This document shows, in pieces, positions 2,561 through 64,000 of a stretch of DNA of 64,000 bases. Under the pieces are notes generated by a model, which saw only the letters and a program-made list of their open reading frames with translations, had not been told where the DNA came from and did no database searches. The stretch covers positions 434,001-498,000 of the forward strand of contig JANJGN010000152.1 of the NCBI GenBank assembly GCA_026770705.1, given 5' to 3'. This DNA comes from Isurus oxyrinchus (taxonomy: Eukaryota). The translations under genes were made by a program, and so were the position numbers. Within the stretch, counting starts at the first letter, position 1; each line of letters starts with the position of its first letter.

Positions 2561-4270
<1,710 letters not shown>

Positions 4271-7783: not shown

Positions 7784-8743
7784 TTACTCATGAACTCGCT
7801 GGTGTCTCAGCAGGTTGGACAAGTCAGTGAATCCATTCCCACACTCGGAGCAGATGAATGGCCTCTCCCCAGTGTGAATCCGCTGGTGCCTCAGCAGGCT
7901 GGCTGACTGAGTGAATCCCTTCCCACACTCAGGGCAGGTGAATGGCCTCTCTCCAGTGTGCACGCGCTGGTGATTTAGAAGGGTGGATAAATCAGAGAAT
8001 CCCTTCCCGCACTCAGAGCAGGTGAATGGTCTCTCCCCAGTGTGAATTCGTTCATGTACAGTGAGGTTTGTTGATCGCCTGAACCCAGTTCCACAGTGAG
8101 AGCACTTGAACGGTCTCTCCTCAGTGTGAACACGTTGGTGGGAGATCAATTGCCCAGAAGTTTTATAGCACTTTCCACAATCTGGGCATTTAAAAGGCCT
8201 TTCATCAGTGTGAACTCGCTGGTGTATAAGCAAGTTGGATGTCCGAGTGAATCCCTTCCCACATACAGAGCAGGTGAATGGTGTCTCCCCAGTGTGAACT
8301 CGCTGGTGTGTCATCAGGTGGAATTACCGAGTGAATCCCTTCCCACACACAGGACAGGTGAATGGTCTCTCCCCAGTGTGATCACGCTGGTGTGTCAACA
8401 GGTGGGATGACTGAGTGAATCCCTTCCCACACTCGGAGCAGGTGAATGGTCTCTCCCCAGTGTGAACTCGCTGGTGTGTCATCAGGTGGAATGACCGAGT
8501 GAATCCCTTCCCACACACGGAACAGGTGAATGGTCTCTCCCCAGTGTGATCACGCTGGTGATTCAGCAGGGCGGATGAATGAGTGAATTCCTTCCCACAG
8601 TCCTCACATTTCCATGGTTTCTCCCTAGTGTGACTGTGCTTGTGTCTCGACAGGCCAGATGATTGGCTGAAGCCTCGTCCACACACAGAACACACGTATA
8701 GTTTCTCTCCATTATGGATGGTGCTTTTCCCTTCCATATTCAA
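7784..8743 (-). pseudogene. C2H2 zinc-finger gene B, 11 fingers, one in-frame TAA in finger 5
   Basis: ORFs 8324..8743 and 7784..8314 share a frame and are separated by TAA at 8326-8324, where the paralogous finger has TCA. The splice acceptor of this exon is at 8848-8847 (tttcacAG). Confidence 0.88.
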
Positions 8744-24095: not shown

Positions 24096-25048
24096 TTACT
24101 TGTGAATTCGCTGGTGTCTCAGCAGTTGGGGTGAATGAGTGAATCGCTTCCCACACTGGGCGCAAGTGAATGGTCTCTCCTCAGTGTGAACTCGCTGGTG
24201 TATCAGTAGGTTGTTTGAGGTAGTGAATCTCTTCCCAAACTGAGGGCAGGTGAATGGCCTCTCTCCAGTGTGAATTCTTTGGTGTGTCAGCAGGTTGGAT
24301 GAGGTAGTGAATCTCTTCCCACACTGAGGGCAGGAAAACGGCCTCTTCCCACTGTGACTTTGCTGGTGTCTCAGCAGGCTAGATAACTGAGTGAATCCCT
24401 TCCCACACTGGGGCAGCTAAATGGCCTCTCCCCAGTGTGAACTTGCTGGTGTGTCAGCAGGTGGGATGACCGAGTGAATCCCTTCCCACACTCAGAGCAG
24501 ATAAACGGTCTCTCCCCCATGTGAACTCGCAGATGTCTCAGCAGGTGGGGTGAATAAGTGAATCCCTTCCCACAAGTGGAGCAGGTGAACGGCCTCTCCC
24601 CAGTGTGAATTCGCTGGTGTACAATGAGTTGAGATGATCGCCTGAACCCATTCCCGAATTGAGAGCATTTAAATGGTCTCTTGTCAGTGTGAACACACTG
24701 ATAGTACATCAGCTCCCAGGAACTTTTAAAGCACTTCCCACAGTCTGGGCATTTAAAAGTTCTCACGTCACTGTGAACTCGCTGGTGTCTCAGCAAGTTG
24801 GATGAGAGGGTAAATCCCTTCCCACAGGTGGAGCAGGTGAACGGCCTCTCCCCAGTGTGACTGCGCCGATGCTCTTCCAGTTCTGACGGGAATCTGAATC
24901 CCTTCCCACAGTCCCCACATTTCCATGGTTTCTCCCCGATGTGGCTGCGCTTGTGTTTTGACAGGTCAGATGATTGGTTGAAGCCTTGTCCACACATAGG
25001 ACATGTGTACGATTTCTCTCCACTGTGAACGGTACTTTTTCCTTCCAT
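24096..25048 (-). pseudogene. C2H2 zinc-finger gene C, 11 finger units, with a frameshift near 24412
   Basis: ORF 24371..25069 ([12 protein letters not shown]...) leaves frame at FSCP|SVGRD. The alternative frame stays open, completing that finger and three more, up to TAA at 24098-24096. Confidence 0.85.
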
Positions 25049-27249
25049 GTTCAAAATCAAATGATACACAGGTTATGATAAATCGGGCGAATGTCAGATT
25101 CTGCTGTGATGTTTTGTTTCTGTTTCCCGACTGCAAATCCTCCCCTTGTAATCCCCTGTGAAACTGATTTAAAACAGAAAAAAGGGAGAGAGAGAGAATC
25201 CACAAAAACACAAAGGCAGGTTGTGAAATTGAGCTGAATGAATCTGGTAATGTGTGGGGCTGGCACCAGGAAAAAGTGACCATGAAAACTGCCGGATTGT
25301 CATAAAAACCCAACTGGTTCACTAATGCCCTTCAGGGAATGGAACCTGCCACCTGGTCTGGGTTACACAGGACTCTGGCCTCCATGGGAGGAAAGAGAGA
25401 GGTGGGAGGTGCAGGGGGTGAAGATGTTTTTAATACATCTTCAGCTCAACCAGAACTCTGGCAGAATATCCCAATCCCTCAACATCCACTACCTAGAAGG
25501 ACGAAGGTAACAGATGTCAGTGAACACCATCACCTCCAACTCACACACTGTCCTAACTTGTCTGACATCCAGTACTGGATGAGCAGAAATTTCCTCCATT
25601 TAAATGTTGGGAAGATGAAAGCCATTGTCTCCGCTCCCGAACCACCGACTCCATCCCTCTTGCAGCTCTCTGAGGCTGAACCAGACTGCTCATAATCTTG
25701 TTGTCATATTTCAGCCCAAGCTGAGCTTCTGACTACAAATCACTAAAACCATCCATTTCCACCTCAGTAATATTGCCCAGCTGTGCCCCTGCCTCAGAGC
25801 ACAGCCCGGTCCCCACACTGGCGCTCTGGGTTCCTGTTCTCATTGATAGGGGACTTTCTGACCCACAGGGCATTCTGGATAAACCAGCTGTCAATGATAC
25901 CAATCAGTGAACGGGCATTTTTTTCCCCCAGTTGGTAAAACAGAAGGTCCATGCATGGGGGCGGATATTGGACAGGAAGCACAATGAGGGGTTCAGACAC
26001 TTTATTAAATACTCACAGCAGAAGCACATTAATTTGATCGGAGATCACTTCCTCATGAGCAGCCAGCGGTGTGCAGCCTCCTGAGATTCCGGGCCCTTTC
26101 CAGTCAGTATTTCTAGGAGCTGGGACACAGAAAAGAGTCTCAGTAAATTCAGGGATTTATTTGTTCACTGCTTTACAATGGGTCTGGGCTCATATTTGAA
26201 GTTTGTGCAGCCTGTGACTCCCTGGGATTATTAACCCTCCCCCTCCAGAGCCTTTGGGCTCTCTATTGCTTTTCAATGTCCTCCTGGCCTTGTTGTATCT
26301 GATCCAATAAAAAACCTTCCTTACATCACACAGGGAACAGCTTTAGACATGTTCTGACTTTTCACCTCAATCTTATTCTGCTGAATGATCTCATTGACCA
26401 TTCCCTTTCTCTCGATCAGTCTGTCCACCATCTCTTTTCTGGATTTCACTCCTTCTTGTTCCAGGATTTCATCTCTCTGCCTTTTATTTCTTTTACTGAA
26501 GATTCCTGTCCATTGCTGCCTCACAGCCTCGTCCTGTTCCCACATATTCTCCATGTCTAAGTGCTTCTCAGCTGCTGTGCCAGCCGTGGCCTCTATTCCA
26601 GCCCAGTCACCGATCTCTCTCTTCCCTCCACCCTTTTTACTGGTGTCACTATCACAGGGACAATCACAGTGTTTTCCGAAAACTGCCTTAACATCGGGGT
26701 CTTGGCAACTGGGTGGTCACAGTCCACCCATCTCTCTCCCTGCATTCAGACTAATAAGATTCCTGGATAATTCCCTTATCATCTGAAGATCGCGGTTCTT
26801 GTAGATGTGATGACATAGCCTTGGGGATGGGTGTGTGGTGTTCAGGGCACATATTACAGGAACTATTTTAAATCTTGTATCACTACATCAGCTTTGTGAG
26901 TATAAGTGATAATTAAGCCATTTGTGGGACCGATTTCTTATGGCAGGGCAGATTGAGGAGTAGTCAGTGAAGCATATGGGGGTCTTGGCTTCATAAATAG
27001 AGGTACTGAGTACAAAAACAGGGAAGTGCACCAACAGAGAGTTGTCAGGATCTGGAACTCTCTCTTTGAAAAGATGTTGGAACCGGATTCTATATCTAGC
27101 CTCCGCCCACTTGTCCTAGATTCCCCAACCAGTGGAAATAGTTCCTCTCTATCCATCCTGTCAGTTCCAATTAATATCCCAAAAACTTTGATCAAATCAG
27201 CTCTTATTCTTATAAATTCCAGGGATTACAACCCTCACAGTGAGGTGAA

Positions 27250-28697: not shown

Positions 28698-29597
28698 TCA
28701 GGAGGCATCGTGACTGAGTGAATCCCTTCCCACACACTGAGAGTTGAATAACCTCTTCTCAATGTGAGTGCGTTGGTGGGTCAGCAGGTTGAAAGATTTT
28801 GCAAATCCCTTCCCACACAGCGAGCAAGTGAATGGCTTCTCCCCAGTGTGAACTCGTTGGTGTGCGGTGAGGTTGGATGACCGACTGAATCCTTTCCCAC
28901 ATACGGAGCATGTGAATGGTCTCACCGCAGTGTGAGTGCATTGGTGAGCAGTGAGGTTGGATGACTGCCTGAGACTCTTCCCACAGGAAGTGCAGCTAAA
29001 TGGCTTCTCCCCAGTGTGAATTCGCTGGTGTCTCAGCAGGTTGGGTAAAACTGTGAATCCCTTCCCACACATGGAGCAGGCAAATTGTCTCTCCCCAGTG
29101 TGAACTTGCTGGTGTAAAATGAGGGAGGATGCCTGCCGGAAACTCTTTCCACAGGAAGTGCAACTGAATGGCTTCTCTTCAATGTGAATTCGCTGGTGTG
29201 ACAGCAGGTGGGCTAACCCAGTGAATCCTTTCCCACACACAGAGCAAGTGAACAGCCTCTCTCCAGTGTGAACTCGCTGCTGTGTCAGGTGGAATGACTG
29301 AGTAAATCCCTTCCCACACTCGGAGCAGGTGAATGGCCTCTCCCCAGTGTGAGTGCATTGGTGTACAGTGAGTGCAGAAGAATGCCTGAACCTCTTTCCA
29401 CAGGAAGTGCAGTTGAATAGCTTCTCCTCAGTGTGAATGCGCTGGTGTGACCAAAGGCCAGATGACTGAGTAAATCCCTCCCCGCACATAGAACAGGTGA
29501 ATGGCCTCTCCCCTGTGTAACTGCGTTTATTGTTTTCCAGCAGATATGAGTAACTGAATCCTTTCCCAGAGTCCTCACATTTCCATGGTTTCTCCAT
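28698..29597 (-). CDS. C2H2 zinc-finger protein D (about 9 fingers; first degenerate, last frameshifted)
   Basis: 299-aa ORF of tandem CxxC-x12-HxxxH units with TGE(R/K)PF linkers. The upstream finger remnant contains TGA, so function is uncertain. Confidence 0.75.
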
Positions 29598-30289
29598 AGT
29601 GCGGGTGTCTTTGTGTCTCTCCAGGTTGAATGATCAGTTGAAACCTTGTCCAGACACAGACCATGTGTATGGTTTCTCCTCACTGTGACCGATGTGATGC
29701 TTTTTCAGGCTGTTCAGCTGGTTAAAGCTCTTTCCACAGTCAGTTCACTGAAACACTCTCACTCGGGTGTGTGTGTGTGTGTGTCTCGGTGTTTTTCCAG
29801 TGACACTGAAGTTAAGTATCTTTCCCCATGAACAGAACAGACAAACATTTCTCCTTCCACATTCAAAATCCGAGGATATTCAGGTTCTGGTGAACCGGGT
29901 GACTCTGTCAGAAGATGTTCGGTTTGAGTTTCACATCTGCAAATCCTTCCCTTCTAATACCCTGGAAAACGAGTTTATAAAAGTCATCACTGTCAGTCCG
30001 GGATGGAAAGTCAGAACAAACAATTCTAGTTTTAGTGGAATATTGTTTTTTCTCTTGTTCCCCCAAAGCTGTAAATTCACGTACAACACACTCTCCCTCC
30101 TCCCTGGGCTGAAATCCAAACCCATCTCCTCCATTTCTTTCCTCCACTCACAATTTTCTCCCTCCGTCTCCTCTGCCTGGGTTCAATTCTCCAGCTCCTG
30201 TCTGCAGACTGACAATAAAATCAATGAATTAATCATTTTCCAAAATCCAGCCCTGTCAGTCCAGGATAGAAATGCACAATATTCTCTCC

Positions 30290-35698: not shown

Positions 35699-36484
35699 TC
35701 ACTTATGAACTCGCTGGTGTGTAATCAGATCCTTTTCACTTTTAAAGGTCTTCTCACAGTCAGAACATTTAAAAGGTCTCTGATCAGTATGAACAAGTTG
35801 ATGTGTCAGAAGGTGGGATGACCGAATGAATCCTTTTCCACACATGGAACATGTGAATGGCCTCTCGCCAGTGTGAACTCGCTGATGTGTCAACAGGTCA
35901 GATGAATTGGTATATCCCTTCCTGCACATGGAGCAGGTGAATGGCCTCTCCCCAGTGTGAATTCGCTGGTGTGTCAGTAGTTTGGATGGCCGATTAAATC
36001 CCTTCCCAAAGATAAAGCAGGTGTATGGACTTTCCCCAGTGTGAATTCTCTGGTGCGTCAGAAGCCTGGATAATCGGTTAAATCCCTCTCCACACAAGCA
36101 ATAGATGAATGGACTCTCCCTTGTGTGAATGCGCTGGTGTGTCAGCAGGTAGGATGACTGAGTGAATCCCTTCCCACACACAGAGCAGGTGAACGGCCTC
36201 TCTAAACTGTGAGTTTGCTGGTGCCTCAGAAAGTTTGATGAATGAATGATTGCCTTCCCACACACGGAGCAGATGACTGAACTCTGCTCAGTGTGAATGT
36301 GCTCGTGTCTCAGAAGGTTGGATGAATGAGTGAATCCCTTCCCACACACGGAGCAGGTGAATGGCCTCTCCCCATTGTGGCTGCGTTGATGAATTTCCAG
36401 CTTTGATGGGGAACCAAATCCCTTCCCACAGTCCCCACATTTCCATGGTTTCACCATGGTGCTGGTGTCCTCGTGGCTATCCAT
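35699..36484 (-). CDS. C2H2 zinc-finger protein E (9 finger units, uninterrupted ORF)
   Basis: 261-aa ORF of tandem fingers. One unit lacks its second Cys (YTCFIFGKG). No KRAB/SCAN/BTB domain is visible. Confidence 0.82.
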   Translation of the reverse strand: MDSHEDTSTMVKPWKCGDCGKGFGSPSKLEIHQRSHNGERPFTCSVCGKGFTHSSNLLRHEHIHTEQSSVICSVCGKAIIHSSNFLRHQQTHSLERPFTCSVCGKGFTQSSYLLTHQRIHTRESPFIYCLCGEGFNRLSRLLTHQRIHTGESPYTCFIFGKGFNRPSKLLTHQRIHTGERPFTCSMCRKGYTNSSDLLTHQRVHTGERPFTCSMCGKGFIRSSHLLTHQLVHTDQRPFKCSDCEKTFKSEKDLITHQRVHK

Positions 36485-36859
36485 ATTGGGTGGTTAGTTC
36501 AAACCTCATCCACACAATTTGTCCTCGATGTGAATGCTGCAATGCTTTTTCAGGCTGTGCAATTGGTAAAACATTTCTCCTTCTATATTAAAGATTCAAT
36601 GATATCCAGCTCCAGATGTATTGAGTGAATCTGTCAGATTGTGACGTGATGTTTTCTTTGAGTTTCCTGTCAGCAAATCTTCCTGTTCAAGTATCCTGTA
36701 AAAGGAGTTTACTGAAGTCAGTAAGGGATAGAAATTCAGAACAGACAATTCCAGTTTCTTTCCTTTTTCTAATTTGTTCATGTGATGTGGGTGTCACTGG
36801 CAAGACCAGTATTTGATGCCCAGCTGGAATTGGGCATACCATCATTGGCAGAGTTATAG

Positions 36860-39362: not shown

Positions 39363-40270
39363 CTAGTTTACTAACTTCAGAATTAGATTCACAAGATATT
39401 TTGCTGCATTTTTCAGCTCCTCTCTGAATTTTCTCTGGATCACTGCATAAATACACGTGTTGGTGCAGCAGCTCAGGAGTTGAAGCATGTTTCCGCTTTC
39501 TTGACGAATGAATTTGGGATCATTGAAATTGGAACCTGTAAAATAAGGTTCGTTTGTAATTTTCACATATAGGAAATTTACAACATACGTCATCCACAAC
39601 AAAATGAAGCTTGCCGAGATGGTAAAGAGTAAAACGATTGACTTTCTCCGGTTCTCGATCTCTGGATCACTCTGCTTCTCTCCACTGCTGTGAGCTCGGA
39701 GTCTCCTGCGGGCTCCACTGGCCACGATGATGTGCCTGACGGTCAGAGCATTGAACAACAGAATCAGAAGGAATGGCAGACCCGGATTTAAAATACGTGC
39801 AAACCAATCATAGGCTGTCCATGCGAATGAAGTGTAGAAGCTTGATTTTACATTACAAAACCACGGTACATTGTTCATTATATAGACTGGTTCATACATA
39901 AAGTACCAGGGAACACTTTTTAAACAGCTTAACAGACAGACAGTTCCTACAACCACAGCCGCCACTCTCTCGGTGCAATAATTTGTTTTCAGCTTTTGGA
40001 AGCAAATGGCAATGTATCGATCAAAGGTGAAAGCGACGGTTAACCAGACAGAACTCTCCGTGGCTGCGTAGATTAGCACAGTACTGAGAGTACAGGCTGG
40101 AGTCATGGACATAAAACTAACGGGAAAATAAATGCCAATGATCCGATTGAATATCACAGCGCTCACAACAACTAGGAGATCCGTCACTGCCATGGACACC
40201 AGGTACCGAGCGATGCATTTGGAGAGGCCACACCTTCCTCGGGATAGGATCACAATCGCCACCAAGTTAA
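39363..40270 (-). CDS. GPR139/GPR142-like class A GPCR, exon 2
   Basis: Acceptor ttctctcAG at 40272-40271. Reads VNLVAIVILSRGRCGLS, TM2 MAVTDL, FTFDRY, TM6 FILLW, TM7 CCTNTCIY, with an open frame to TAG. Confidence 0.9.
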
Positions 40271-42059
40271 CTGAGAGAAAAAACAAAATTAACATTGTAA
40301 TGTTCAAGCAGGGACGTGAATGTTATAGGCTTTTGATACTTCATCCTCGTTTATAGAAGACAACCAAATCAATGATTAATAGCTTTTCAATGTCATCTCT
40401 GTTTCAACATAAACAACACGGATACGCTGCATTTGTATCGCGCCTTTAACGTAAAAAAGTGGTCCAATCGCATGACAGGAGAGTGATACAGCAAAATTTG
40501 ACATCCAACCACATAAGGAGAAGTTTTGCCAAATGACGAAAAAGAATGAGAATGAGATAGATTTAAGGGATGATTTAAGGAAGAGAGTGCAGTAGAGAGG
40601 CGGAGTGTTTTAGGGAGTGAATTTAAGAGAGCTTAGGACATAACAGCTGTAGGCCTCGAGGTTACTTGTAGTATTTGGCACTCAACTTTTGGATGTTGCA
40701 TCATGTTACAGGGCATTTCCTCTAAACACAGTAGCCATATTAATTATTTTTCTGTTGTTGAAATGTACACTGTGACATCGTTTAAATTGGCTCGATAGGA
40801 TTCCACGGGAGGATATTTAGGAAGCAGGATGTGTCGGGTGTATGCAATTGGAGAAGAACCAAATGACTTATGTCTGAAACACTGCTAGTTTGAAGGCGAT
40901 ATGTCCACGTTTCCACAGTTCGCATTCTGCTGAAGTGTCATGTTTATTCCCCGACGATGAAAGGTGAAATAACTTTGTCTTATATTTTCAGGGATTTAGA
41001 AGAATGGGAGGTAATCACAAGTACTATTCTCAAGGGGCTTGACGGGATAGACATGCGGAGGGTTTTCCCGCTGGCTGGAAAATCTAAAGCCTCCGGGAAC
41101 AGCTTCGGGATAAGAGAGCGATCATTTCGGATGGAGAGCAGCAGAACGTTAGTGCATTTCTGGAATTCTATACCCAAAGGTCTGTGGATATTTCATTGTT
41201 GAGAAGATTTTAGACTTGGATAGACAGATTTCTGACGTCTCAGGGAATCAAATGATATGTGGACCCGGCGGAAAGCGGATAGAAGCCCAGGATCAGCCAT
41301 GATTTCATTTAAATGAGGAGCTGGCTCGGCGTGTTGCATGGTCTTCTGCTGCTTCTATCTCTGGTGTTCTTCTACACAAATCTGTCTGAGCTTCCGGAAA
41401 GACATAAATCATACCACAGCGAGAATGGAGCGCACATGGTGCCATATGCAAATCTGCAGCTGTAAGAGCACATGACCATGTATATATAGCTTGACAATGA
41501 TCACCTCCCAGGTCATCACACATCGTCCATCTGGATATGTAAACCAGATAACTTTCAGTAATTTTTTGGTACTCAGTGCTGAGCAGCCCCCTGGATTGGA
41601 TTATGTATCTCAGATCCCGGTAGCGATGCTACCTGTAAGTGTGGATGCATGACATACTTTAACATTCTAATGACATTAATTAAATCAACAAGTTGGATTA
41701 TTGCTGATGTCCAAGGTGATATAATTTGGATTAATAAAATAAAGATGAGGCGATTTTCATGAGTATCACTTGCCTCTAGAGGGCCTCAAAATAGGAGGGA
41801 TAATTTTCAGGCCCTGTGACACCAGTGAAGAGGAGGAGCTACAGTTCGAGGCCCAGAGCAACTCTTGTTTAAAATAATTAAACCGTTAGTCTGGACCCCC
41901 AGATGTAACCAGAATCATGTCCGTAGTTCTTTTCCCACATTTCACCCCCATTGGCCAAAAGGCAATTCAATACCCCAAGAGAGTCAAACCAAATATTGGC
42001 GCTGAAATTCTTCTTTGGGACAGTGCACAATGATTGAAGAAAACATCCGGCATGGTTTG

Positions 42060-43613: not shown

Positions 43614-46600
43614 ATTTTTTTTTCAAAAATATACTTTATTCATAAATCTTCAAAAACATTTCGAACCATTTCAAATCACCATTACAAAAACACAATCAAG
43701 TTCAACTTTTACAACATGAATCACAAGGTGTATCAGAGCAAACAATGAATATTTCAATCATTGGCAGACATTCATTTTAATCTGTGCAGCCTGAGGGGCT
43801 CTTTACAGCTCCCAGCCCCCCAGTGCACTGTGGCAGAAAGGTCTTAGGCAGCGACCCTTCCCCATTGTGCCTTTGCGGCGGCTGCCCCAAGCTTATCTGT
43901 GTCCCTCAGCACGTAATCCTGGACCTTGGAATGTGCCAGTCTGCAATACTTGGTCGGGGACAACTTTTTGCGCTGGAAAACCAACAAGTTTCGGGCAGAC
44001 CAAAGAGCGTCTTTCACCGAGTTGATGATCCTCCAGCTGCAGTTGATGTTTGTCTCGGTGTGTGTCCCTGGGAACAGCCCGTAGAGAACAGAGTCCTCTG
44101 TCACAGAACTTATCGGGATGAACCTCGACAGAAACCATTGCATCTCTCTCCAGACCTTCTTCGCAAAGACACAATCTACGAGGAGGTGAACAATGGTCCC
44201 TTCCCCACCACAGCCACCTCGAGGGCAACGTGCAGAGGGGGTGAGACTCCTGGCGTGTAGGAAGGATCTTACAGGAGGGCCTTTCTCACCACCAGCCAAG
44301 CTACATCTTGGTGTTTGTTGGAACGTTCTGGTGATGAGGCATTCTGCCAAATGACTTTGTCAGTCTGCTCAGGGAACCATCCCACAGGATCCACCCTCTC
44401 CTTTTCCCTCAGGGCCTTTAAGACGTTATGTGCCGACCACTGCCTATTGGACTTGTGGTCGAAGGTGTTTCCCTGCATAAATTTTCCCACGAGGGACAGG
44501 TGGTACGGCATGGTCCAGCTATTTGGAGCATTCCACGGCAGCGTGGCCAGACCCCTCCTTCGCAACACCGGGGACAGGTAGAACCTCAGCATGTAGTGAC
44601 ACTTGGTGTTAGCGTACTGAGGGTCTATGCACCACTTGATGCAGCCACACACAAAGGTGGCCATCAGTATGAGGGCGATGTTGGGCACGTTTTTCCCCCT
44701 TTATCTAGAGGTTTGTACATCGTGTCCCTGTGGACACGATCCATTTTTGACCTCCAGATAAAGTGGAAGATGGCTCGGGTGATCACCACCACACAGGAGT
44801 ATGGAATGGGCCAGACCTGCGCCATGTACAGCAACAGCGGGAGTGCCTCACACCTGAGGACCAGGTTCTTACCCACAATGGAGAGGGAGCGTCTCTCCCA
44901 CATGCCCAGTTTCCTTTTCACCATAGACACTCGCTCCTTCCAGTTTCTAACGCGTGCCCTGGCCCCTCCGAAACATATCCCCAGCACCTTCAGGCCATCA
45001 GCCCTGACAGTGAAGGAGACAAAGGATCGGTCAGCCCATTTCCCAAAGAACATGGCCTCGCTCTTCCCATGATTTAACTTGGCTCCCGAGGCCAGTTCGA
45101 AATGGTCACATATGTGGATCAGTCTGCGCACTGACAGCAGATCCAAGCAGAATACGGTGACATCATCCATGTACAGGGAGGCTTTGACCTGAGTGCCTCC
45201 ACTGCCTGAGATCGTCACTCTGCTTATGCACGGATCCTTCCTGATGGACTCAGCAAAGGGTTCTATGCAACACACGAAAAGAACAGGTGAGAGAGGGCAG
45301 CCTTGCCTGACTCCAGATTTAATAGGAAAGCTATCTGATTCCCACCCATTGATTGAGACTGCACTACTGATGTTAGTGTAGAGCAGTATGATCCAATTGC
45401 GAATTCCCTCCCCAAACCCCATTTTGGAGAGCACATTCACCGTGTAGGTGTGTGATATTCTGTCAAAGGTCTTCTCCTGATCGAGGCTGATGAGGCAGGT
45501 ATCCACACCCCTGTCCTGTACATAGGCAATTGTAGCCCTGAGCAGCGTGAGGCTGTCAGAGATCTTACTGCCCGGCACAGTGCAGGTCTGGTCAGGGTGG
45601 ATCACCAATTCCAGAGCGGATTTGACCCGATTGGCGATGAACTTGGACAGAATTTTATAGTCCACATTCAACAGTGAAATGGGTCACCAATTTCTAAATT
45701 CCTCCCTTTCCCCCTTGTGCTTGTAGATGAGGGTGATAATGCCTTCCCTCATGGATTCTGACATACTGCCGGCCAGGAGCATACTCTCGTACACTTCTAG
45801 CAGGTCTGGGCTGATGCAGTCCCACAGAGCCGAATACAACTCCGCTGGCAAGCCGTTGCTTCTGGGAGTTTTACTCTTCTCGAAGGATTCAAGGGCCTCA
45901 GTCAGTTCGTCAGGAGTTAGCGGTTTGTCCAGACTCTCCCGTGTACTGTCGTCTAAGACCTCCGTGACAGAGGACAGGAAAGTCTGGGAGGCCGTGCAGT
46001 CTGTGGGCTTCACGTCATATAATCCAGCATAGAAGGATTTGCTGATCCTCAAAATGTCGGACTGTGATGACTTTACTGAGCCAACTTCTTCCTTCAGGCT
46101 GCTGAGCACAGAGCTCTCTCTGTGTACCTTTTGGAAGAAGAAACGTGAGCACGTCTCATCCTGCTCCACGGAGCGGACTCTGGAACAGAAGATGATTTTG
46201 GAGGCCTCCGAGGCAAAGAGTGAGGCTTGCTAGCTCTTCACCTCTTGGAGTTCCTCCTTGACATCGACCCCCATCGACCGCAGCCAGAGCAGGTTCTGCA
46301 TGTTTTTCTGGAGTCGGGACATTTCTCTCTGTTCCTTTCTAGCTTTCTGGGTGCCTTTGAGGACGACAAACCTCTTGATGTTTCCCTTGATCGCTTCCCA
46401 CCAGTGTGTCAGGGATTCAAAGAGAGGTTTCACGGTTCTGCAACCTTTGTAATCCCTCTTGAGCTCCTCAATGTTCTCTAGGGTCAGCAGTTCCACGTTT
46501 AGCTTCCATGCCCCCCTGCCAACCCTCTGGTCCTTCTCTAAGTGACAGTCAGCCAGTAGGAGGCAGTGGTTAGAGAAGAACACTGGCTTGACGTCGGTGG

Positions 46601-48895
46601 ATCTGACTGTGAATGCACGGGACCCAAAGAGGAAATCTATCCTGGAACAGATGGACCCGTCAGGCCGCGACCAGGTGTATATATGCTGCGCTCTGTCTGC
46701 AGGGTTGCTGAAGACGTCGTGCAGCTTGGCATCCTTTACTGTTTCCATCAGGGATCTGGATGTAGCGTCCAATCTGCTGTCAGCCCTGCTGGATCGTCCA
46801 GCCACATCGATGATGCAGTTGAAGTCATCGCCCAGAATGACCAGCCTGGAGGTTGCCAGCAGCAGTGGGAGCTGCTGAAAAACCTCCAGCCGCTCAACCC
46901 CTTGTGATGGTTGTAATTAACCAGAGTGGAGCATTCTTATACATTACGTCTGCTACGAGGAGGCACCCGCCCACCACCTCCTTAACCTGGGAGACGGTGA
47001 AGCTGCCTCCCCGCAGCAGAATCCCCAGGCCGGAGGAACGAGAGTCGTTTCCTCCCGACCAGATCGATGGCCCATGTGACCACCATCGTGACCATTGCCT
47101 GTAGGAGCTGAGGTGCGGTATCGCACACTCCTGCAGAAACAACAGGTCAACTTTGACCTTGGCAAGGTAGTCCAAGGTCGCAACACATCGCGTAGTAGAT
47201 TTAATGCTACGCACATTTATGGATACAATCTTTACACCCATTGTAAAGCAATTAGTCGCTTACCAAACCTGTTGTCTTTGAGAGTTCCAGACCATTGGTC
47301 TGCTCCTTCATGCCCGTGGTGTGCTCAAATTGCTTCACTTGGGATGGGCTGAGGAAAGCGTCCTGAACCTCCCCATTGGCAGTGTTCTACTCGGGTGGCA
47401 TCTGGGGGTCCGTGCAGAGAGCGGAGTTTGAAATGTCCTCTGTTGGAGAAGCTTCTCCAATCCTCTCCCCCTCTGGGGCGTTGCTGCTCCTGGCTTCCCG
47501 GAGCTGGGGTGCGCTGAGCGCCTCACTGTTCCCAGATTCCTGGGGCTGTGGTGCACTGGCCTCTTCGGGTTGTGGGCAAAGTTGGGGTGCGCTGGTCTCT
47601 TCATTGTCTCCAATGTTCTGGAGCTCGGGTGTCTCAGCCTCCAACTCCCTAGCGTTTTGCCGCTTCTTCTGTTGGCGCCGCCCTGGCCCTTCTTTGTCCG
47701 AAGAGCTGCTGCTCTTGTCATCCGTGTCAGATGGGAGACGCCTCTTGACTCTTGTCTGGGAAGTGGCTTGGTTTCTTTTTAGCCCCTTCTTCCTTTTGGC
47801 TCTCTTCACCAGCTGCCACTCCCCCTGCTGCTTTCCCACTGTTGCCTCCTTCTCCTCTGTTGATTCACTCTCCTGAGGAGTGGGAGGATCAGGGGGCAGT
47901 GCTGTTGGTTGGACGTCTGTTGCCCCAATCTTTTCCTCCACCTTGTCTCTCTCTGTGTCCTCCTTTGTCCCGTTGTTCTCCCTGGGGGCCTTGGTGGTTG
48001 GAATGACGTGAGGCATTTCATCTGCTTCCCCCTCGTTGGCTTTGGCTGCCTGTGCATTACTACGGCAATGTTTGGGGCAGGTCTTGTAGAGGTGACTTGC
48101 CTCACCACACAGGTTGCAGCACTTAGCCAGTTTACAATCTTTTGTCTGGTGCCCTTCCTTTTTGCAGTTCTTGTAGAGGGCGGCACTGCAGTTGGCCGCC
48201 ACATGACCAGACTTGCCGCATGAGCTAGAAAGTTTGGGTTGCCCAGCGTAGACAAGGTACCCATGGCTTCTCCCGATAGCAAATCTGGAAGTGGGGTGGA
48301 AACTGGCTCCCTTACCGTCGGTCTTGAGCATTACATTAACCTGGCGTTTACATGTCCAGATCCCCAAATTATCTTTAACCTCAGTGCAGCTCCCAACCTT
48401 ATCGAAGTACCTGGTAAGGAAGGTGAGCACGTCAGCGACAGGGACGTAGGGGTTGTACAGATGCACCATCGCAACCCGTTCTCGTTGCAACGGTAGAGCA
48501 AAGAGTGGCTCCGCTGTCAGGATCTTCATTTCTGGCAGGTCTTCCTTTTCCTCAAACACCTTCAGGAGTTTGACACAAGCTGCCACTTGCTTGAAGGTCA
48601 CATCAAAGAAACCAGCGCTGGGGAAATCCTGTAGGCAGTAGATCTCCACAGCCTCAAAACCACACAGCTTGAATAGGATCCTCTTGGTGAAGAAGGTCCT
48701 ATCCATTCCTGTTCCTTGCTCGCTGCCCTTCACCATGACTCAGATGGTGTTAGGTACCCCATGGTAAGGGGTTTGACTGGTTATAGCCATTGCTCTTTCC
48801 CTGGCAGAAACACGATGAAGGTCTCTCCCTTGCCAGGTAAGTATCCAAAAATTGCAAGAAAAAAGAGCACACAACGCAAGGGTATAAGGTATAAG
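43614..48895 (-). mobile_element. Full-length, decayed Tx1-clade (L1-like) non-LTR retrotransposon
   Basis: ORF1 47387..48736 has CCHC knuckles (CKKEGHQTKDC, CNLCGEASHLYKTC). ORF2 starts at 47241 (SINVRSI..LQEC endonuclease; LDQEKTFD, GVRQGCPLSP, YMDD RT; CPRGGC..HLLVDC) and is broken by frameshifts and stops. AATAAA at 43640-43635, poly(A) at 43623-43615, 17-bp TSD. Confidence 0.93.
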
Positions 48896-53443: not shown

Positions 53444-53869
53444 TACTGTGTCTATAATCCCACCATGTTCAGGTTTTTGTACAGCTCTCTCCGTGCTCTG
53501 TATCACTGTGTGTCTGTTATCCCGCCATGTTCAGGATTTTGTGCAGCTCTCTCCGTGCTCTGTATCACTGTGTGTCTGTAATCCCACCATGTTCAGGTTT
53601 TTGTACAGCTCTCTCCGTGCTCTGTATCACTGTGTGTCTGTTATCCCGCCATGTTCAGGATTTTGTGCAGCTCTCTCCGTGCTCTGTATCACTGTGTGTC
53701 TGTTATCCCACCATGTTCAGGATTTTGTGCAGCTCTCTCCGTGCTCTGTATCACTGTGTGTCTGTAATCCCAGCATGTTAAGTTTTTGTACAGCGCCCTC
53801 CGGTTTCTGTATCACTGTGCACCATGCTGAGGTTTTTGTACAGCTCTCTCCGTGCTCTATATCACTGTG
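53444..53869 (-). repeat. Tandem array of seven 23-bp-spacer recombination signal sequences (62-bp unit)
   Basis: Plus-strand nonamer/heptamer starts: 53472/53504, 53534/53566, 53596/53628, 53658/53690, 53720/53752, 53781/53813, 53831/53863. Every heptamer is CACAGTG on the minus strand and every spacer is 23 bp. An orphan CACAGTA sits at 53450-53444. Confidence 0.95.
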
Positions 53870-54169
53870 CTGTGCGCCGACTCAGTTCACAGTAATAAAG
53901 TGCGGAGTCGCTCAATTGTAATTTGGAGATCTTCAACCGGCTGATTTTCTCGGTAGAATCGACAGAAGCAGAAATTCTCCCCCAGGCAGCATTTTCTTTA
54001 TTCTCCTCTCCTGAAATGTGTCCCTGAAGCAGATATTCCGGAGCCTGTCCTGGGGACTGACGGTACCAGTGTACTGTGCAGAACCCTGAATATCCCCAGT
54101 TTAAAATAACGGTGTCAGCGATGGCAGAGATTTCTAGAGGCGAAATCCGGGAAATTATGGAACTGGAAT
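53870..54169 (-). other. Leaderless NAR-TCR-supporting TCR-delta V gene segment (first canonical Cys replaced by Trp)
   Basis: Acceptor ttatcctccAG at 54171-54170. Reads (D)SSSIISRISPLEISAIADTVILNWGYSGFCTVHWYRQSPGQAPEYLLQGHISGEENKENAAWGRISASVDSTEKISRLKISKLQLSDSALYYCELSRRT, with WYRQ, DSALYYC, a CDR1 Cys and a perfect 23-RSS at 53869-53831. Not in the ORF track. Confidence 0.9.
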
Positions 54170-57099
54170 CTGGAGGATAAAAAAATGAACACAGCCAATA
54201 TTTGTCCAGGAGAATTTGTCAATCGCGTGAATAGCTCTGCTTTTTGCAGTAATTTTATTTGCTGGAAGCCTATTAGAACCTTGTTCACTGTTATGAAAAT
54301 ATGACCAAATGGGGAATTAGGTGATGTTTTATTTTACATTGCGAGTTCTTCCGATCAGGACTGGACTGTCTGAATTGGTGTTGGGGATAGATTCAATAGT
54401 AACTTTCAAACGGGTAATGGGTCTGTGCTAGAAATGTAAATACAAATATAGAGCAAGGAGAAAATTCATGGGCAGTGGGAACAATTGTATTACACTTTTA
54501 AAGGGTCAGCGCCTACACGATGGGCCGAATGTCATCCTTCCGTGCTGGATAATTCTATGAATTATATTACATTCCGGTTTCTACTTTCCTTGGTGAGACA
54601 CATAGCCGGGGGAGCATTTTATGATCAGTGAGTCAATCAATTTCCAAAAAAAACATGTTTGTTGGAGAGAAACACAGCTGTGTGGCATCACTGCGCACAG
54701 CAAGATCCAACACAAACTGACGGGATTCATCAACACCGATCGGGCCAAACCGAGAGTGAACATCTCTCGTGGTGAACGGTCAATCATTTACTGCGGTTTA
54801 AAACGGCTCGGGAATTTTTATCTGCCATTTGCTCTATTTCTATATATTCTATCAATAGGGTCCACTTTTCTCCAGTTCAGCTTAATTTCGAACACATGCA
54901 ATTAATTTCATTTTATTTCTTTAAGTTCACATTCCCTTTATTTCACGTTAATTTTGTGCTGCTTGTGCTTGTTGCAATCCTGGGAACTTGTCCCAAATTC
55001 TCACAGTTGTCGGTTGGGCTCAGTCTGTTCAGTTTCCGCAGCGATTTTAACTGTTACTCACTGGGAACTGCCTCTTCTGGCTCTCTGACAATTTCAATTC
55101 CTTCCGCCCATTGGTTGATTCTCTCCTGGGTTCACTAGGCGGAGTTCTCTCTCACTTTTACATTATAGAGGAAGAAGAATGCAAAAGAGGAAAGGGCCAT
55201 TCAGCCTTTGTATATAATCAATTCCAGCTTGACCTCACCAGTAACCTAACTGACCATTTCCATCCAGCTCCCTGTGTTGGTCTGTTCCGTTCTCCCTCCT
55301 GAAATTTCAAGTGTTCCAATAAATATATCAATACTATCTGCCCCGACCTCTCCCTGTGGCAGCAAGTTCCACATTCTAACCTGCCTTTGTTTAAATTCAC
55401 TTGTCTTAAATGTTTTATTTGTTCTGTTAGTTACTGTCATATGTTGACAGCTATTGCTTTACACTCAGCCACAAATGAACAATTTCTCCACCATAAAACA
55501 GTTCATGATTCAAAAGATTTCTATGGATTCTCCTCTTGGTTCTGTTTTCCAGAAAAAAGAGACCCAGCCTGTTCAATCTTCGCAAAGAGATGTAGATTGT
55601 TGCTGATTTCTTTTCTCAGGAGTGTAAAAAATCAAAGCAGAGAATCCAATCAATAGAAACAGGAGCCCCCATATCACCTTTCTAACCTGCTCAGCCATTC
55701 AGGAATATCCTGGCTGATTTACAACCTCAACGTCAGATTCCCGCACTCTCCCCATATCCCTGATCTTTTAGTGTCCATAAACCTATCAAATATTGTCTTC
55801 AAAGCAAACAGATACTGAACATCCACAGCCCTCTGAGTTACAGAATACCACAGATTCACAACAATGGTTCTAGTGAAGATGCTTTTTTCCTTCTCAGTTC
55901 TAATGGATGACTCTTTACTCTGAAGCTGTGACCCCGAGTTCTATACTCCTCAGTCTGGGGAGACACCGACCCAGAATCTCCCCTGTCAAAACCCTTCAGT
56001 ATATTGTATGTTTTCATGAGATCACCTCTCATTCTTCTAACTCTAGGAAATATAGACAGAGACGACTAAATCTCTTCCCATTGGACAATCCCTTCATCTC
56101 AGGAATCAGTCTGATGAAACATTGTTACGCTCCTTCCAATGCAGATTGATCTCTCTTCTGTAAGGAGAACAAAACTTTACACAGCATTCCGGACTGGAGT
56201 CCATTTCAGTCCTTCCCTCCATAAACCTCATCCAACAGCTTGGGGTCGGATTGTACTTTAAAAGGCACCCAGAAATCATTCAATCCTTCCCTCCCGTTCG
56301 ATTCCTTATTTCTTGCTGGTTCTCAATGAACATTCCCACAGTTTCCTTCTGTCCCTACTCTCCTTTATAAGATTAATGCATTACCCTGACTCGCTCACTG
56401 CACTGTGCTGTTTCAATTCACAGTAATCAGGGATACAGATAAATTATAGCAATCCCATCTCTCAAACATCTACATTCAATATAGAGAAGTGTCTGCAGAT
56501 CCAAACTTTCACATTTCAGTCTGAGGGCGGAAAAGCAGGAAAGTGATTCGTTTTATGAAGACAATTGAAAGAAATGGCAGGCAGAATGTTACTAATTTCA
56601 GTCATTGATTGTCCAAAAATAAAATTCCACCTGGACCCACATCAGGGTCTAATTTCTGAAGTCCGTGGTGTCACTCTCCCGTTTTTCTCCCGGGTCAGGT
56701 ACTGAACGAGCCGCTGCAGGTATCCGAACTGGCCGAAGTTGTGTTGAGTTTATTCACCCGGTGCCTCATTCACATTGCGCGGCTTGGACTGCAATCTGCT
56801 ACCCAGGAGACAGCTCTGTGACCCCGCTCCCGAGCTCTAAGGGACAGACAGAGTTCCCTCGGTCACAGTTAACACCGGGTGTGGAGTCCGGATTGTCAAC
56901 AATCTGCGCTCATTAAAAGCAATTCAGCGTGTGAGGGTCCATGATGTTGATATTGTCCCCGATGTGCCCGTTAAACTAATAATGGCCCAGAATCCACCAA
57001 CTCCCACATCCCACCCAAACTCCACTGATATCAATAATAAACTGTCTGTGAACATTACCAGGGACAGTCTGTAACCCGGCGGGGTTTGGAGTCACTTAC

Positions 57100-57152
57100 C
57101 GGCTGTGACAGTCACCAACATCCCGGATCCATCCACATATTTAATACATCAC
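57100..57152 (-). other. NAR-TCR J gene segment
   Basis: G TGA TGT ATT AAA TAT GTG GAT GGA TCC GGG ATG TTG GTG ACT GTC ACA GCC G|GTAAGT = *CIKYVDGSGMLVTVTA. It has a GxG motif and a phase-1 donor matching the supporting V acceptor. Confidence 0.9.
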
Positions 57153-57191
57153 CACAGTGACACCGCTCTCAGTCTCCCCGGTACAACAACC
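57153..57191 (+). other. J recombination signal sequence (23-bp spacer)
   Basis: CACAGTG at 57153-57159, 23 bp, then ACAACAACC at 57183-57191. Confidence 0.9.
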
Positions 57192-57506
57192 GCCGACACC
57201 TCACCGTGCCGGGAAATCATCATCAGACAGTAGAAACTTCCCAATTATTCAGCGGATTTAAATAAATAAACAATATTCAACGTTCCAAAGTCTCTGTTGG
57301 GTCAAACTGTTCTTTGTGAGGCCCTGAGCTCTGAGTATATGGTGCCCGGAACGAGATGTTCGCTTCATGTAAACCGACAAAAATAACAAAGAAAGATAAC
57401 TGAATGGTGGAAATTAAAATCAAATGTAACCAGATTCCATTGATAATAACATTAACCCGACAATTCACTATCCGAGCCCGGAGAATTTATATTTAAATCA
57501 TACAGA

Positions 57507-57579
57507 GGTATTTGCTCAGGTTTCTCCTATTGTGACTCCTCCACCCATCCATACAGTGTTACAAGTCAGTATAAAATCC
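57507..57579 (-). other. D gene segment (17 nt, TGGATGGGTGGAGGAGT, 57551-57535) flanked by two 12-bp-spacer RSSs
   Basis: J-facing RSS: CACAATA (57534-57528), 12 bp, GCAAATACC (57515-57507). V-facing RSS: TACAGTG (57552-57558), 12 bp, ATAAAATCC (57571-57579). G-rich and open in all three frames. Confidence 0.82.
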
Positions 57580-57919
57580 CCCGGGTACTTGGGGAGATTT
57601 GGGGACATTAGTTAAACAGCGGGGACTGCGGTTCCCGGTTCCAGCTGTTAGACCAGGATCACATCTGGTGTTCGAGGTTTGTAACTGGGATCAGTCTTTC
57701 CCAATCCTCACTCACTGACACCAATCCCGGGAAAAACATCACCATCCGCACACACTCGGCATTTATAAAACTCAAGATGTTAACAGCAATAATCCAATCT
57801 CATTATAAACTAGACTGTGGGGCAGACGGTCCTGTGGGGGAACTGAAGCGGAACTGTGGGGGTTTAATTGCAGACTTCACTCCACTTTTCCATTTGTTTC
57901 TGTGACAATCTGCAGTGAG

Positions 57920-57957
57920 AGTTTTTGTATCGCGGGAAGCCGAGGCCCATCACTGTG
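57920..57957 (-). other. V recombination signal sequence (22-bp spacer, 23-class)
   Basis: CACAGTG at 57957-57951, 22 bp, then ACAAAAACT at 57928-57920. Confidence 0.92.
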
Positions 57958-58231
57958 TATCAATAGTATTGAGCTTTACAGTAATAGGTGGCGGTGTCTT
58001 CAACTCTCACATCCCGAATTTCCAGAGAAAATGTCTTTTGTACTTTATTCACCGACGCCACAAATCTCCCCGCGCGGGGATCGGCTCCCACAATGTCCCG
58101 GGTTTGTCTGAAGAAATGCCCATTTTTAAAATAATAATAATTATCATTGAAAACACAGGTGATGGTGAGAGACTGACACTCCTTCCTGGTCACCGCTGCC
58201 GGGGTCTGTACCACTGACTGACTGAAAGAGC
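57958..58231 (-). other. NAR-TCR (IgNAR-like) V gene segment
   Basis: (R)SFSQSVVQTPAAVTRKECQSLTITCVFNDNYYYFKNGHFFRQTRDIVGADPRAGRFVASVNKVQKTFSLEIRDVRVEDTATYYCKAQYY*. A short V lacking the CDR2 region as in IgNAR, with an extra FR1 Cys (KECQS) and DTATYYC. Acceptor AG at 58233-58232. Confidence 0.9.
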
Positions 58232-58353
58232 CTGGAAATTAAACAGAGAGAATTTAATGGAGCATCAGAGCCGAACCACAGAACTGGTTTAAAACCCCGG
58301 ACAGTGTCTGTATTTGAGATGGATACGGACAGCTTTGTTTGATCTGCACTCAC

Positions 58354-58396
58354 GGGGTAAACAGACACACAGAGTGAAAAGAAGGAGGATTCCCAT
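58354..58396 (-). CDS. Leader (signal peptide) exon of the NAR-TCR V
   Basis: MGILLLFTLCVCLP+C|GTGAGT, followed by a 122-bp phase-1 intron that joins the V exon in frame. Confidence 0.9.
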
Positions 58397-58413: not shown

Positions 58414-58515
58414 TTTATATGACGGGGAGCTGGAGACTGCAGCCTTGGACCGCACTGGGAGACCGGATCTCAGAGCTGGACTGAAATACTTTAGGGGGAT
58501 CGAGTTAATTTGCAC
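58414..58515 (-). promoter_or_regulatory. Putative V-gene promoter (TATA, CRE half-site, octamer-like)
   Basis: On the minus strand: ATATAAA at 58420-58414, abutting CGTCA at 58424-58420, and GTGCAAAT at 58515-58508 (one mismatch to ATGCAAAT). Confidence 0.45.
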
Positions 58516-59271
58516 AGGGTAGTTTCGCTGAGACTATTGATGGGCCGCATGGTTCCCGGATAGCTGGCTAAGTGTTGTGGAAATAAGCGACAGCTTTATA
58601 AAAGGAAACTGCAACTTTCTGACCTTTCGTTTGGATAGTGATCCGGATGTGAAAGCCCCTCCCACAATACTCTGGTGTACAGGGGTGGAGAAGGGGAGCT
58701 TTTCTTTCTGCCAGTTCTGTTGCCGCCTTCCTTTCCCCACAGTAATGAATTGGGAGGTGGGTGCATGTCTTTGTATTGGGTGGTGTTTGTTAAAGGTGGA
58801 ATGTGGGCCCAGGACACCGAGAGAAACCCCACGACCCACTCTTACTCCAACATTCCGGAGATTCTCCCTGTCATTTAGCCAAATGCATCCTGCACCAGCC
58901 CTGCGATGGGTTACATGTAAAATGGCGTTTAATTTCAGCCACGTTTGACTTCCAGATTGGGAAAATTCAGAATTTCTGTTAGCAGTAAGTGAGATGGAAA
59001 CGGCACTCGGGAGGACAACAGACCTTGGGGGGCTGTGCTCTTGGGGTTCTCTTTAAAGATGACAGTCACAACATTCTGTTCTGAAAACTGTTTCTGGTGT
59101 ATGATTATCTCTCAACCAGCAACAGCAATACTCAATCAAATAAACCCCGTGACAAGGCCGAGGTCAGAGGCTTCACGAAGCTGACACCGGAGTTCGGGAA
59201 AAAGCTGCTAAACGTTGCAGGCAGGTACGGAAATGCCATTAAAAGGCGAAACGGAAATTAAGAACTGCAGC

Positions 59272-59470
59272 ACGTCACACAAACATGGCCGACAGGACGT
59301 CACAAAAACATGATCAACAGTAAGTCACACAAACATGGCCGACAGCTTTGTCACACCAACATGGCCGACAGTACAACACAAGCATGGCCGACAGTACGTC
59401 ACACCAACATGGCCGACAGTACGTCACGCAAACATGGCCGATAGTACGTCACACAAACATGGCCGATGAC
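59272..59470. repeat. Minisatellite, 8 copies of about 25 bp (acgtcacacaaacatggccgacagt)
   Basis: Directly visible tandem copies. Confidence 0.9.
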
Positions 59471-61899: not shown

Positions 61900-64000
61900 A
61901 TAAGGGGCATCAAATGTTAGTGGGGGTTGTATAAAGATCCGAAACTGTGGTGGTGATGTTGGGACTGGAATTAAACAGGAAATTAGAGACGTATCCAATA
62001 AAGAAACATCTGTAATTATGGGTGATTTAATCTGCATATAGATTGGGCAAATCAAATACCGTAGAAGAAGAATTCTTGGAGTGTATACAGGATGGCTTTC
62101 TGGACCAATGCATTGAGAAACGAACTAGAGAACAGGCTATTCTTGACTGGGTATTGTGTAATGAGAAAGGAATAATTGGCAATCTAGATGTGCTAGGCCC
62201 CTTGGCGATGAGCGGCCATAATATGATAGAATTCTTCATCAATATGGAGAGTGACGTAGTTGATTCTGAGACTGGGGCCCTGAACCTTAATACAGGAAAC
62301 TACGATGGTGTGAGGCGTGCGTTGGCTATGATGGATTGGGAAACGTTACTTAAAGGGATGACGGTGGTTAAGCAATGGCAAACATTCAAAGAGCGCATGG
62401 GTGAACTGAAACAATTGTTATTCCTGCCAGGTGCAAAAGTGAAACAACAAACGTGGCCAAACCATGGCTTATGAGAGAAATTAGAGATAGTATTAGATGC
62501 AAGGAAGAGGCATACAAATTGGCCAGGAAAAGAATAAAGCAGACCTGTGCATTGGAAGCAGATTAGAATCCAACAAAGGAGGACCAAGGTATTGATTAAG
62601 AAGGAGAAAATAGAGTACCAGAATAAGCTTGCAGGGAACGTAAAACCTGACTGTAAAAGTTTCTATACGTATGTGAAGAGAAAAAGGTTGGTGAAGACAA
62701 ATGTAGGTCCCTTACAGTCAGAAACAGGAGAATTTAAAATGGGGAGCAAAGAAATGGCTGACCAAGTAAGTACATACTTTGGTTCAGTCTTCACAAAGAG
62801 GACACAAATAACATACTAGAAATGTTGGGAAACACAGGGTTTAGAGAGATGGAGGAACTGAAAGAAATCTGTATTAGTAGGGAAATGGTATTGGGGAAAT
62901 TGATGGGATTGAAGGCCGATAAATCCCCAGGGCCTGATAATCTACATCCCAGAGCACTTAAGTAAATGACCCTAGAAATAGTGTATGCATTGGTGGTCAT
63001 CATCCTAGATCCTATACACTCTGGTACAGTTCCTGCAGATTGGAGAGGAGCTAATGTAACCCCACTATTTAAAAAGAGTGGTACAGAGAAAACAGGGAAT
63101 AAAAGGCCAGTCAGCCTGACGTCGCTAGTGGGGAAAATTCTAGAGCCCATTATAAAAGATTTAATAGCTGAGCACTTGGAAAACATTGGCAGAATCGGAC
63201 AGTCAGCACACATTTACGTCAAATCTATTGGAATTCTTCGAGGATGTCACTAGTGGAGTGGATGCATTTTAGTTGGACTTTCAGAAGACTATCGACAAAG
63301 TCCCACAGAAGAGATTAGCATGTAAAATTAAAGCGTATGAGATTGGGGATAGTTTGTTGAGATGGATAGAAAACTGGTTGGCAGACATGAAACAAAGAGG
63401 AGGAATACACGGGACATTTTCCGAATGGCAGGCAGTGACAAGTCGGGTACCTTAGGGATCGGTGCTGCGTCCCCAGCTATTAACAATAGATATTAATGAT
63501 TTAAATTAGGGAACTAAATGTAATACCTCTAAATTTGCAGATGACACAAAGCTGGGTGGGAGGGTGAGTTGTGAGGAGGATGCAGAGAAGCTTCAGTGTG
63601 ATTTGGACAGGCTGAGTGAGTGGGAAAATGCATGGCAGGTGAAGCATAATGTGGATAAATTTGAGGTTATCCATTTGGATGCAAAAACAGGAAGGCAGAT
63701 TATTATCTGAATGGCTATAAATTGAGAGAGGGGAATGTGCAACGAGACCTGGGTGTCGTCGTACACCAATCGCAGAAGGTAAGCATGCAGATGCAGCAGG
63801 CGCAAAAGAAGGCAAATGGTACGTTGACCTTCATAGCAGAGGATTCCAGTACAGGAGCAGGATGTCTTGCTGCAATTGTACAGGGCCTTGGTGAGGCCAC
63901 AACTAGAATATTATGGCCAGGTTTAGGCTCCTTATATGAGGAAGGATGTTCTTGCTATAGAGGGGGTGCAGCGAACATTTATCAGACTGATTCCTGGGCT
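61900..64000 (+). mobile_element. CR1-type LINE ORF2, degraded, running off the window
   Basis: REQAILDWVL, CKSFYTYVKRK, WRGANVTPLFKK..RPVSLTS, DFQK..DKVP, FADD at about 63534. Confidence 0.9.

Follow-up and report, generated by a model that had tools for sequence, protein, structure and literature searches.

A NAR-TCR cassette of intact layout and probable decay in Isurus oxyrinchus, and the cassette family to which it belongs

We describe a T-cell receptor (TCR) delta cassette of the NAR-TCR type in the shark Isurus oxyrinchus (NCBI GenBank assembly GCA_026770705.1), found on the minus strand of a 64,000-nt stretch of contig JANJGN010000152.1 (C152 below; positions 434,001 to 498,000) that we call the window. 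NAR-TCR is reportedly the doubly rearranging TCR-delta of cartilaginous fish, an account said to go back to Criscitiello in 2006. The layout of the window cassette is intact, and we consider it, with a probability of about 0.68, to be a decaying copy that is rarely or never assembled; a defective D signal, a compensated frameshift in the NAR V, broken sister cassettes and a relaxed dN/dS ratio carry this reading. The copy is most likely a decaying member of a NAR-TCR V family that has at least 64 V on a single contig. In working members RAG would join V, D and J inside the cassette, the supporting V would be joined to the only D-delta and to one of the J-delta of a D-J-C unit lying far off, and an L-NARV-Vdelta-Cdelta transcript would then be spliced, steps that are established for the family and that would apply to the window copy by extension.

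Layout of the window cassette

A preliminary description of this DNA, made from the letters alone, had proposed a complete germline cassette. The leader, the IgNAR-like V with a recombination signal sequence (RSS) of 22-nt spacer and the J with a 23-RSS were all confirmed, and the parts are listed here in window coordinates; signals are scored against the RSS consensus, and Cys23 and Cys104 carry their IMGT numbers.

58414..58419 (-), putative TATA-like box seen in the sequence, 18 nt upstream of the start codon
58354..58396 (-), leader exon of 14 codons plus 1 nt, phase 1, GT donor
57958..58231 (-), NAR-TCR V exon, with a framework region 1 (FR1) Cys codon at 58178-58176 and without the Trp of the 'WYRK' position
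58076..58101 (-), frame-shifted segment of the NAR V in the hypervariable region 2 (HV2), from alignment with 20 paralogs
57920..57957 (-), NAR V RSS, 22-nt spacer, canonical heptamer
57552..57579 (-), D 5' 12-RSS, first heptamer base changed from C to T at 57552, likely dead
57535..57551 (-), D segment of 17 nt, position and length as in paralogs
57507..57534 (-), D 3' 12-RSS, heptamer CACAATA with 2 mismatches, CAC intact
57153..57191 (-), J 23-RSS
57100..57152 (-), NAR-TCR J exon, DGSG motif, phase-1 donor GTAAGT
54170..57099 (-), 2,930-nt intron from J to supporting V, without a credible leader exon
53870..54169 (-), leaderless supporting V-delta exon, open frame, with a Cys of complementarity-determining region 1 (CDR1) at 54080-54078 and Cys104 at 53891-53889
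53831..53869 (-), first 23-RSS of the supporting V, perfect consensus
53444..53830 (-), six further tandem 23-RSS and a broken eighth unit, in units of 61-62 nt

The NAR V signal reads CACAGTG/22/ACAAAAACT, and an in-frame stop lies two bases 5' of this heptamer, which trimming could remove. Signals with at most one mismatch number nine in the window and none in each of 30 shuffles. All exon junctions are phase 1, the J exon ending GCC G|GT and the second V exon starting AG|AT TCC, so the matching splice phases that had been claimed are present at every junction, as are the extra FR1 Cys of the first V and the CDR1 Cys of the second. Both V exons score above the Pfam V-set cut-off, and the leader peptide is of the same type as the NAR-TCR leaders of other sharks. 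The intron, put earlier at 2.9 kb, was scanned for a leader to the second V and yielded nothing convincing: two hydrophobic ATG..GT candidates, 505 and 2,827 nt from the second V exon, were rejected for their poor donors, so that the second V indeed appears leaderless. A weak second J-type 23-RSS at 57202 has 5 mismatches and was taken as chance.

Other elements of the preliminary description stood in part. The D does carry two 12-nt spacers as proposed, but its heptamers read TACAGTG (5', in signal orientation) and CACAATA (3'); the second V does have its own 23-RSS, the first of which is perfect, but seven stand in tandem followed by a broken eighth, and this array had gone unseen. Likewise, every part of a 'complete' cassette is there, but completeness in the sense of a usable cassette is unsupported in view of the four signs of decay named at the outset.

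NAR-TCR rather than IgNAR

As defining features of NAR-TCR, PMC1845163 gives a Cys in the a-b loop, the absence of the Trp of WYRK, and a leaderless supporting V with a CDR1 Cys, the disulfide between the two extra Cys being called putative there; PMC6795676 and PMC12227049 cover these features further. All of those defined in PMC1845163 were found in the window cassette, which has a leadered IgNAR-like V with its a-b loop (FR1) Cys at KEC and GHFFRQ in place of the WYRK Trp, its own D and J, a leaderless supporting V-delta and phase-1 splicing throughout. It differs from the described NAR-TCR in its defective D signal, its compensated frameshift and the Trp that replaces Cys23 in its supporting V.

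In a tree, the window V lies in a group made up of 14 paralogs and 8 NAR-TCR V from other cartilaginous fish (support 90/67, not starred, with long outgroup branches meeting there), and seven V from IgNAR clusters of the same genome form a separate side (98/94). The preliminary call of NAR-TCR thus holds, the V grouping with NAR-TCR V of this genome and of other sharks and apart from bona fide IgNAR. It is very improbable indeed that the first V is part of an IgNAR antibody cluster, or that the second works as a V-delta of its own with a leader. Among solved structures in the Protein Data Bank, VNARs match the first V best, and the V fold, the 22/12/23 signal style and the related J motif are shared with IgNAR. 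However, the seven IgNAR-type clusters of this genome keep the Trp, lack the FR1 Cys and have several D signals and another J, and their V are 42-45% identical to the window V; IgNAR clusters in general have constant exons of their own; the window has one D, and 3' of its J comes a V exon rather than a constant exon. The tree and these cluster features refute an IgNAR identity at the level of sequence. As for independent use of the second V, no leader was found before it, and in NCBI models of other sharks the J is spliced to it. The supporting V is 62-79% identical to supporting V of other elasmobranchs, and one paralog type is nearly identical to a white shark model (P0021).

Signs of decay in the D signal and the NAR V

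We compared the window copy with 60 paralogous cassettes of the same genome. Under the 12/23 rule a V with a 22-nt spacer cannot join a J with a 23-nt spacer directly. The first base of the D 5' heptamer is changed from C to T in 5 of 34 V-D-J cassettes, all of them in the clade of the window copy, and in a DNA run from a related shark it is C in 8 of 8 covering contigs. The CAC of the heptamer is required for RAG cleavage (PMC9723617). No alternative register for the D 5' heptamer combined a CAC with a usable nonamer among signals with at most 5 mismatches. With the CAC lost from the D signal and a direct 22/23 join barred, the V-to-D join is predicted to fail.

Alignment of the NAR V with 20 paralogs shows a 5-nt deletion common to the window copy and five sisters. 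A compensating 1-nt deletion, 26 nt further on, occurs only in the window copy and in one sister (L061), the other four of the five sisters remaining frameshifted, and the rescued frame has 9 altered residues in place of 11 in the HV2 region. Because the D heptamer lesion is common to the frameshifted sisters, it must predate the rescue of the frame. Three of the five sisters with the 5-nt deletion also have a broken supporting V. The window cassette is a mosaic of stretches resembling L062 (99.1% alike) and L061 (98.0%), and we propose that chance or gene conversion restored its NAR V frame within a frameshifted clade.

The supporting V bears its own changes. The codon of the canonical Cys23 (54098-54096) is TGG (Trp), which leaves the domain without the canonical Cys23-Cys104 disulfide, and CDR1 has a 2-residue deletion; Cys23 is kept in 47 of the 61 cassettes. 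Between the supporting V of the window and that of L061 dN/dS is 1.21 (8 nonsynonymous, 2 synonymous changes), and the median is 0.73 in the short-CDR1 group (26 pairs) versus 0.38 in full-CDR1 paralogs (36 pairs), pairs that are few and not independent, which itself tells against leaning on these ratios.

Several further points weigh against a decaying copy. Both V frames, all splice sites and the TATA-like box are intact, as are the V-RSS, the J-RSS and the first supporting-V RSS, and the window J and supporting V could serve the V-D of another cassette. The CAC rule (PMC9723617) rests on mammalian RAG assays. Of 27 supporting V matched in other sharks, 8 likewise have Trp or Tyr for Cys23, with one model (P0015) as a ninth beyond this motif-pattern count, and we therefore dropped this replacement as a decisive mark of a pseudogene. 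Finally, three catshark supporting V lack both canonical Cys in open frames, so that a disulfide-free V domain is possible there. The models with Trp or Tyr for Cys23 are P0006, P0008, P0010, P0015, P0017-P0020 and P0023, from horn shark, catsharks and smooth-hound.

From such observations one might argue for a working cassette, in which the second deletion gave a usable V with a new HV2 loop, D is weak or borrowed, and the supporting V folds without its canonical disulfide. We regard this as unlikely. Its case is made by the open frames and intact splice sites, by the loss of Cys23 in horn shark, catsharks and smooth-hound and also in L066 and L067, paralogs whose D signals are canonical, and by L061 as a second frame-restored copy. 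Set against it are the age of the D lesion, which frameshifted sisters carry too and which is older than the rescue, a dN/dS near 1 between the two rescued copies, and the finding that shark Ig clusters rearrange almost only within the cluster (PMC4279169). A search for RNA records of the window copy listed none; the possibly-RNA runs (with X1 and X2 apparently a single data set) hold fragments of relatives and leader introns still unspliced, and are uninformative on the window copy.

The family in the genome and its partner units

The genome gave 152 matches to the window NAR V, and those listed cover 138 distinct NAR-TCR-type places. At least 64 NAR-TCR V lie on one contig (C26), where they range from 23.1 to 40.2 Mb, face either way and stand to the left and right of a C-delta at 29.90 Mb; these counts are lower bounds in that 150 of 578 candidates were scored, and they may include haplotype duplicates. 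NAR-TCR is accordingly a large family here. Two C-delta matches were found in the genome, on C26 and C242; each is preceded by a single 12/23 D and by at least 10 or 11 J. Neither lies on the 1.2-Mb contig of the window, C152, whose cassette has its sisters on C26. The D-J-C-delta unit of C242 has diverged from that of C26.

The 61 cassettes comprise 34 with separate V, D and J, 15 with V-D joined, 8 with V-D-J joined and adjoining the supporting V, 3 unclear and 1 without a NAR V; in this survey a NAR V counted as 'open' when open to its YYC motif, which overcounts intact NAR V. The V-D joined cassettes have a 12-RSS facing J (L080, L082, L084, L086, L089, L092, L093, L098, L099, L101-L104, L111 and L120), and their commonest type also occurs in the related shark's DNA run (joint 57520-57966).

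Stacked cassettes

Outside the window, 13 of 103 supporting V have two to four NAR V upstream with no supporting V between. These 13 stacks consist of nine that were read, a near-identical four-V pair on C151 and C210, and two on C242; the multi-V cassettes of C242 (L176-L180) are of another type, with V-D joined and the FR1 Cys changed. Three of the nine are placed as follows, and six more were read (L161-L172).

C152:554,275-564,590, upstream neighbour of the window cassette on the same contig and the nearest stack to it
C26:38,750,351-38,769,355
C26:37,894,879-37,914,958

In all nine the first V is leadered, with a full V-D-J in seven and no separate D found in two, and the later NAR V are germline-joined VDJ exons. 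The 12 distinct joined exons are all open, with GT donors and a Cys in CDR3; the leader is dead in 11 of the 12 (a stop at codon 4, a lost ATG or a lost donor), and the median dN/dS among the joined exons is 0.44 over 32 pairs.

In record 6 of run X4, which aligns with window positions 57974-58232, the 3' end of a NAR V is followed by 83 letters that run to the exact start of another NAR V exon, and both this length and the count of 11 differences equal those of the joined exons of L161 and L164, which precede a further NAR V; this is a single contig of depth 3.1, its RNA nature is a guess, and the relation of its source organism to this genome is not given. The same splice from J to NAR V is made in a white shark model (P0009). 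Table S1 of PMC12227049, dated 2025, gives white shark LOC121270133 the label 'NARTCR V(gj)V(gi)V'; this gene shares its NCBI description with P0009, and the accessible main text holds no discussion of it. This is a likeness to our stacks, a single gene model having its one V-delta preceded by two NAR V and being apparently marked germline-joined; the 10 NARTCR rows of the table make no mention of an upstream rearranging V-D-J, dead leaders, the CDR3 Cys or selection. In the accessible literature this one supplementary-table label is so far all that we have found on stacked, pre-joined cassettes.

We think it probable, on these grounds, that mackerel sharks produce TCR-delta chains of three to five V domains. 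The topmost would be a rearranged NAR V; under it would come one to three NAR domains that are invariant, joined in the germline and leader-dead, each with a fixed CDR3 Cys clipped onto the FR1 Cys of its upper neighbour; the supporting V-delta would be last. On the simplest reading, the CDR3 Cys of the stack would take the role that the CDR1 Cys has in the supporting V. If the stacked reading holds, the stack would give a single-domain antigen binder a stalk that can be extended, an arrangement convergent with marsupial TCR-mu. TCR-mu too sets a rearranging, antibody-like V over a structural V (PMC7615758, PMC3457774), and its germline-joined, invariant second V resembles the middle exons of the shark stacks. 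It differs in its VH-like domains, its own C in each cluster and its total of two V domains; in the shark stacks a V-delta that still rearranges sits below one to three joined NAR exons, and the window cassette has no joined exon at all.

A tandem array of 23-RSS behind the supporting V

The heptamers of the window array lie at 53869, 53819, 53758, 53696, 53634, 53572 and 53510, with the broken eighth at 53450; the array has a period of 62 with 91% matches, and holds seven of the nine window signals with at most one mismatch. In the family, 2-10 units stand behind the supporting V in 47 of 61 cassettes (copies 2 and beyond being identified by whole-unit similarity). Conventional V have a single RSS in 17 of 18 cases, the remaining one showing a weak second match (three of the 20 control loci yielded no V motif), and among 60 NAR V a second signal is never seen.

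The best explanation, in our view, is an old, family-wide minisatellite that grew from a functional signal and whose extra copies are under at most weak constraint. Parsimony changes per site are 3.14 for the heptamer, 3.57 for the spacer, 2.67 for the nonamer and 4.09 for the linker in downstream copies, as compared with 0.57, 1.38, 0.89 and 1.55 in first copies. When matched for base, heptamer changes reach 0.78 of expectation in downstream copies (P=0.14) and 0.38 in first copies (P=0.02). Array size shows no relation to intactness (33 versus 28 cassettes, P=0.70) or to distance from C-delta (52 cassettes, rho -0.08). Two results sit less easily with a minisatellite. When heptamer and nonamer are pooled, downstream copies show a borderline deficit of changes (46 observed versus 59.3 expected, 0.78, P=0.04), and array-like read-through is seen in a whale shark model and in one protein of the European Nucleotide Archive (ENA), so that extra signals may act. 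Such weak constraint on the downstream copies could also stem from copying of the first unit.

The possibility that the array serves as a switch of CDR3 length is ruled out in this genome, where an in-frame stop precedes the second heptamer in 45 of 46 open, multi-unit supporting V (74 supporting V less 15 broken and 13 with a single RSS; the exception is L058). Joins to distal signals would accordingly give only non-productive primary joins. The array of the ENA protein (P0029) reads open for 109 residues after YYC.

A selected device for capture and retry, in which a distal signal brings the supporting V to D-J-delta and the first signal, left in place, goes on to join a J-delta further downstream (23 to 12) to give a short, D-less CDR3, is conceivable if doubtful. 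Alternative use of RSS with germline retention is known from mouse and human TCR (PMC6857471), and the arrays have properties that suit such a device: they occur behind supporting V alone, 72 of 137 units beyond the first remain close to canonical, the D-J-C units each hold one D and at least 10 J with 12-RSS, the largest arrays (3-10 units) stand behind stacked cassettes, and array-like sequence occurs in distant sharks. On the other hand, the CAC of downstream copies changes no less than the spacer (4.67 versus 3.57 per site), array size is unlinked to distance or intactness, and 12 of 61 cassettes make do with a single unit. We therefore retain the minisatellite. As a difference from described NAR-TCR, a tandem 23-RSS array is absent from the NAR-TCR descriptions in the accessible parts of PMC1845163, PMC6795676 and PMC12227049; our literature searches found no report of one, and the primary NAR-TCR papers may describe arrays or joined exons.

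Other features of the window

The remaining features of the window, in its own coordinates, are these.

59268-59466, eight-copy tandem repeat of 25 nt with TACGTCA-like motifs, 0.9 kb upstream of the leader
39363-40322 (-), open single-exon frame of a rhodopsin-family G-protein-coupled receptor, 319 codons (Pfam 7tm_1)
43844-48739 (-), fragmented long interspersed element, with a ZCCHC3-like first frame and reverse transcriptase
2575-3548, 7791-8692, 24101-25072, 28698-29633 and 35699-36493, C2H2 zinc-finger arrays, at least five near the cassette
about 62000-64000 (+), decayed CR1-like element recognized by eye, with no Pfam match for the piece tested

Meaning for the family

Taken alone, the window copy is one more NAR-TCR cassette, probably crippled, and illustrates on a small scale how a second deletion can rescue a frameshift. 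The survey of the family reaches further, in that it supplies exact germline templates for a class of receptors reported to have no known ligands (PMC7615758) and reveals that the supporting V often loses a canonical Cys and carries stacked recombination signals. Germline-joined TCR exons were called unique to marsupial TCR-mu in the accessible text of a 2023 paper; our survey predicts that sharks use such exons too, in delta chains longer than the three-domain form that has been reviewed.

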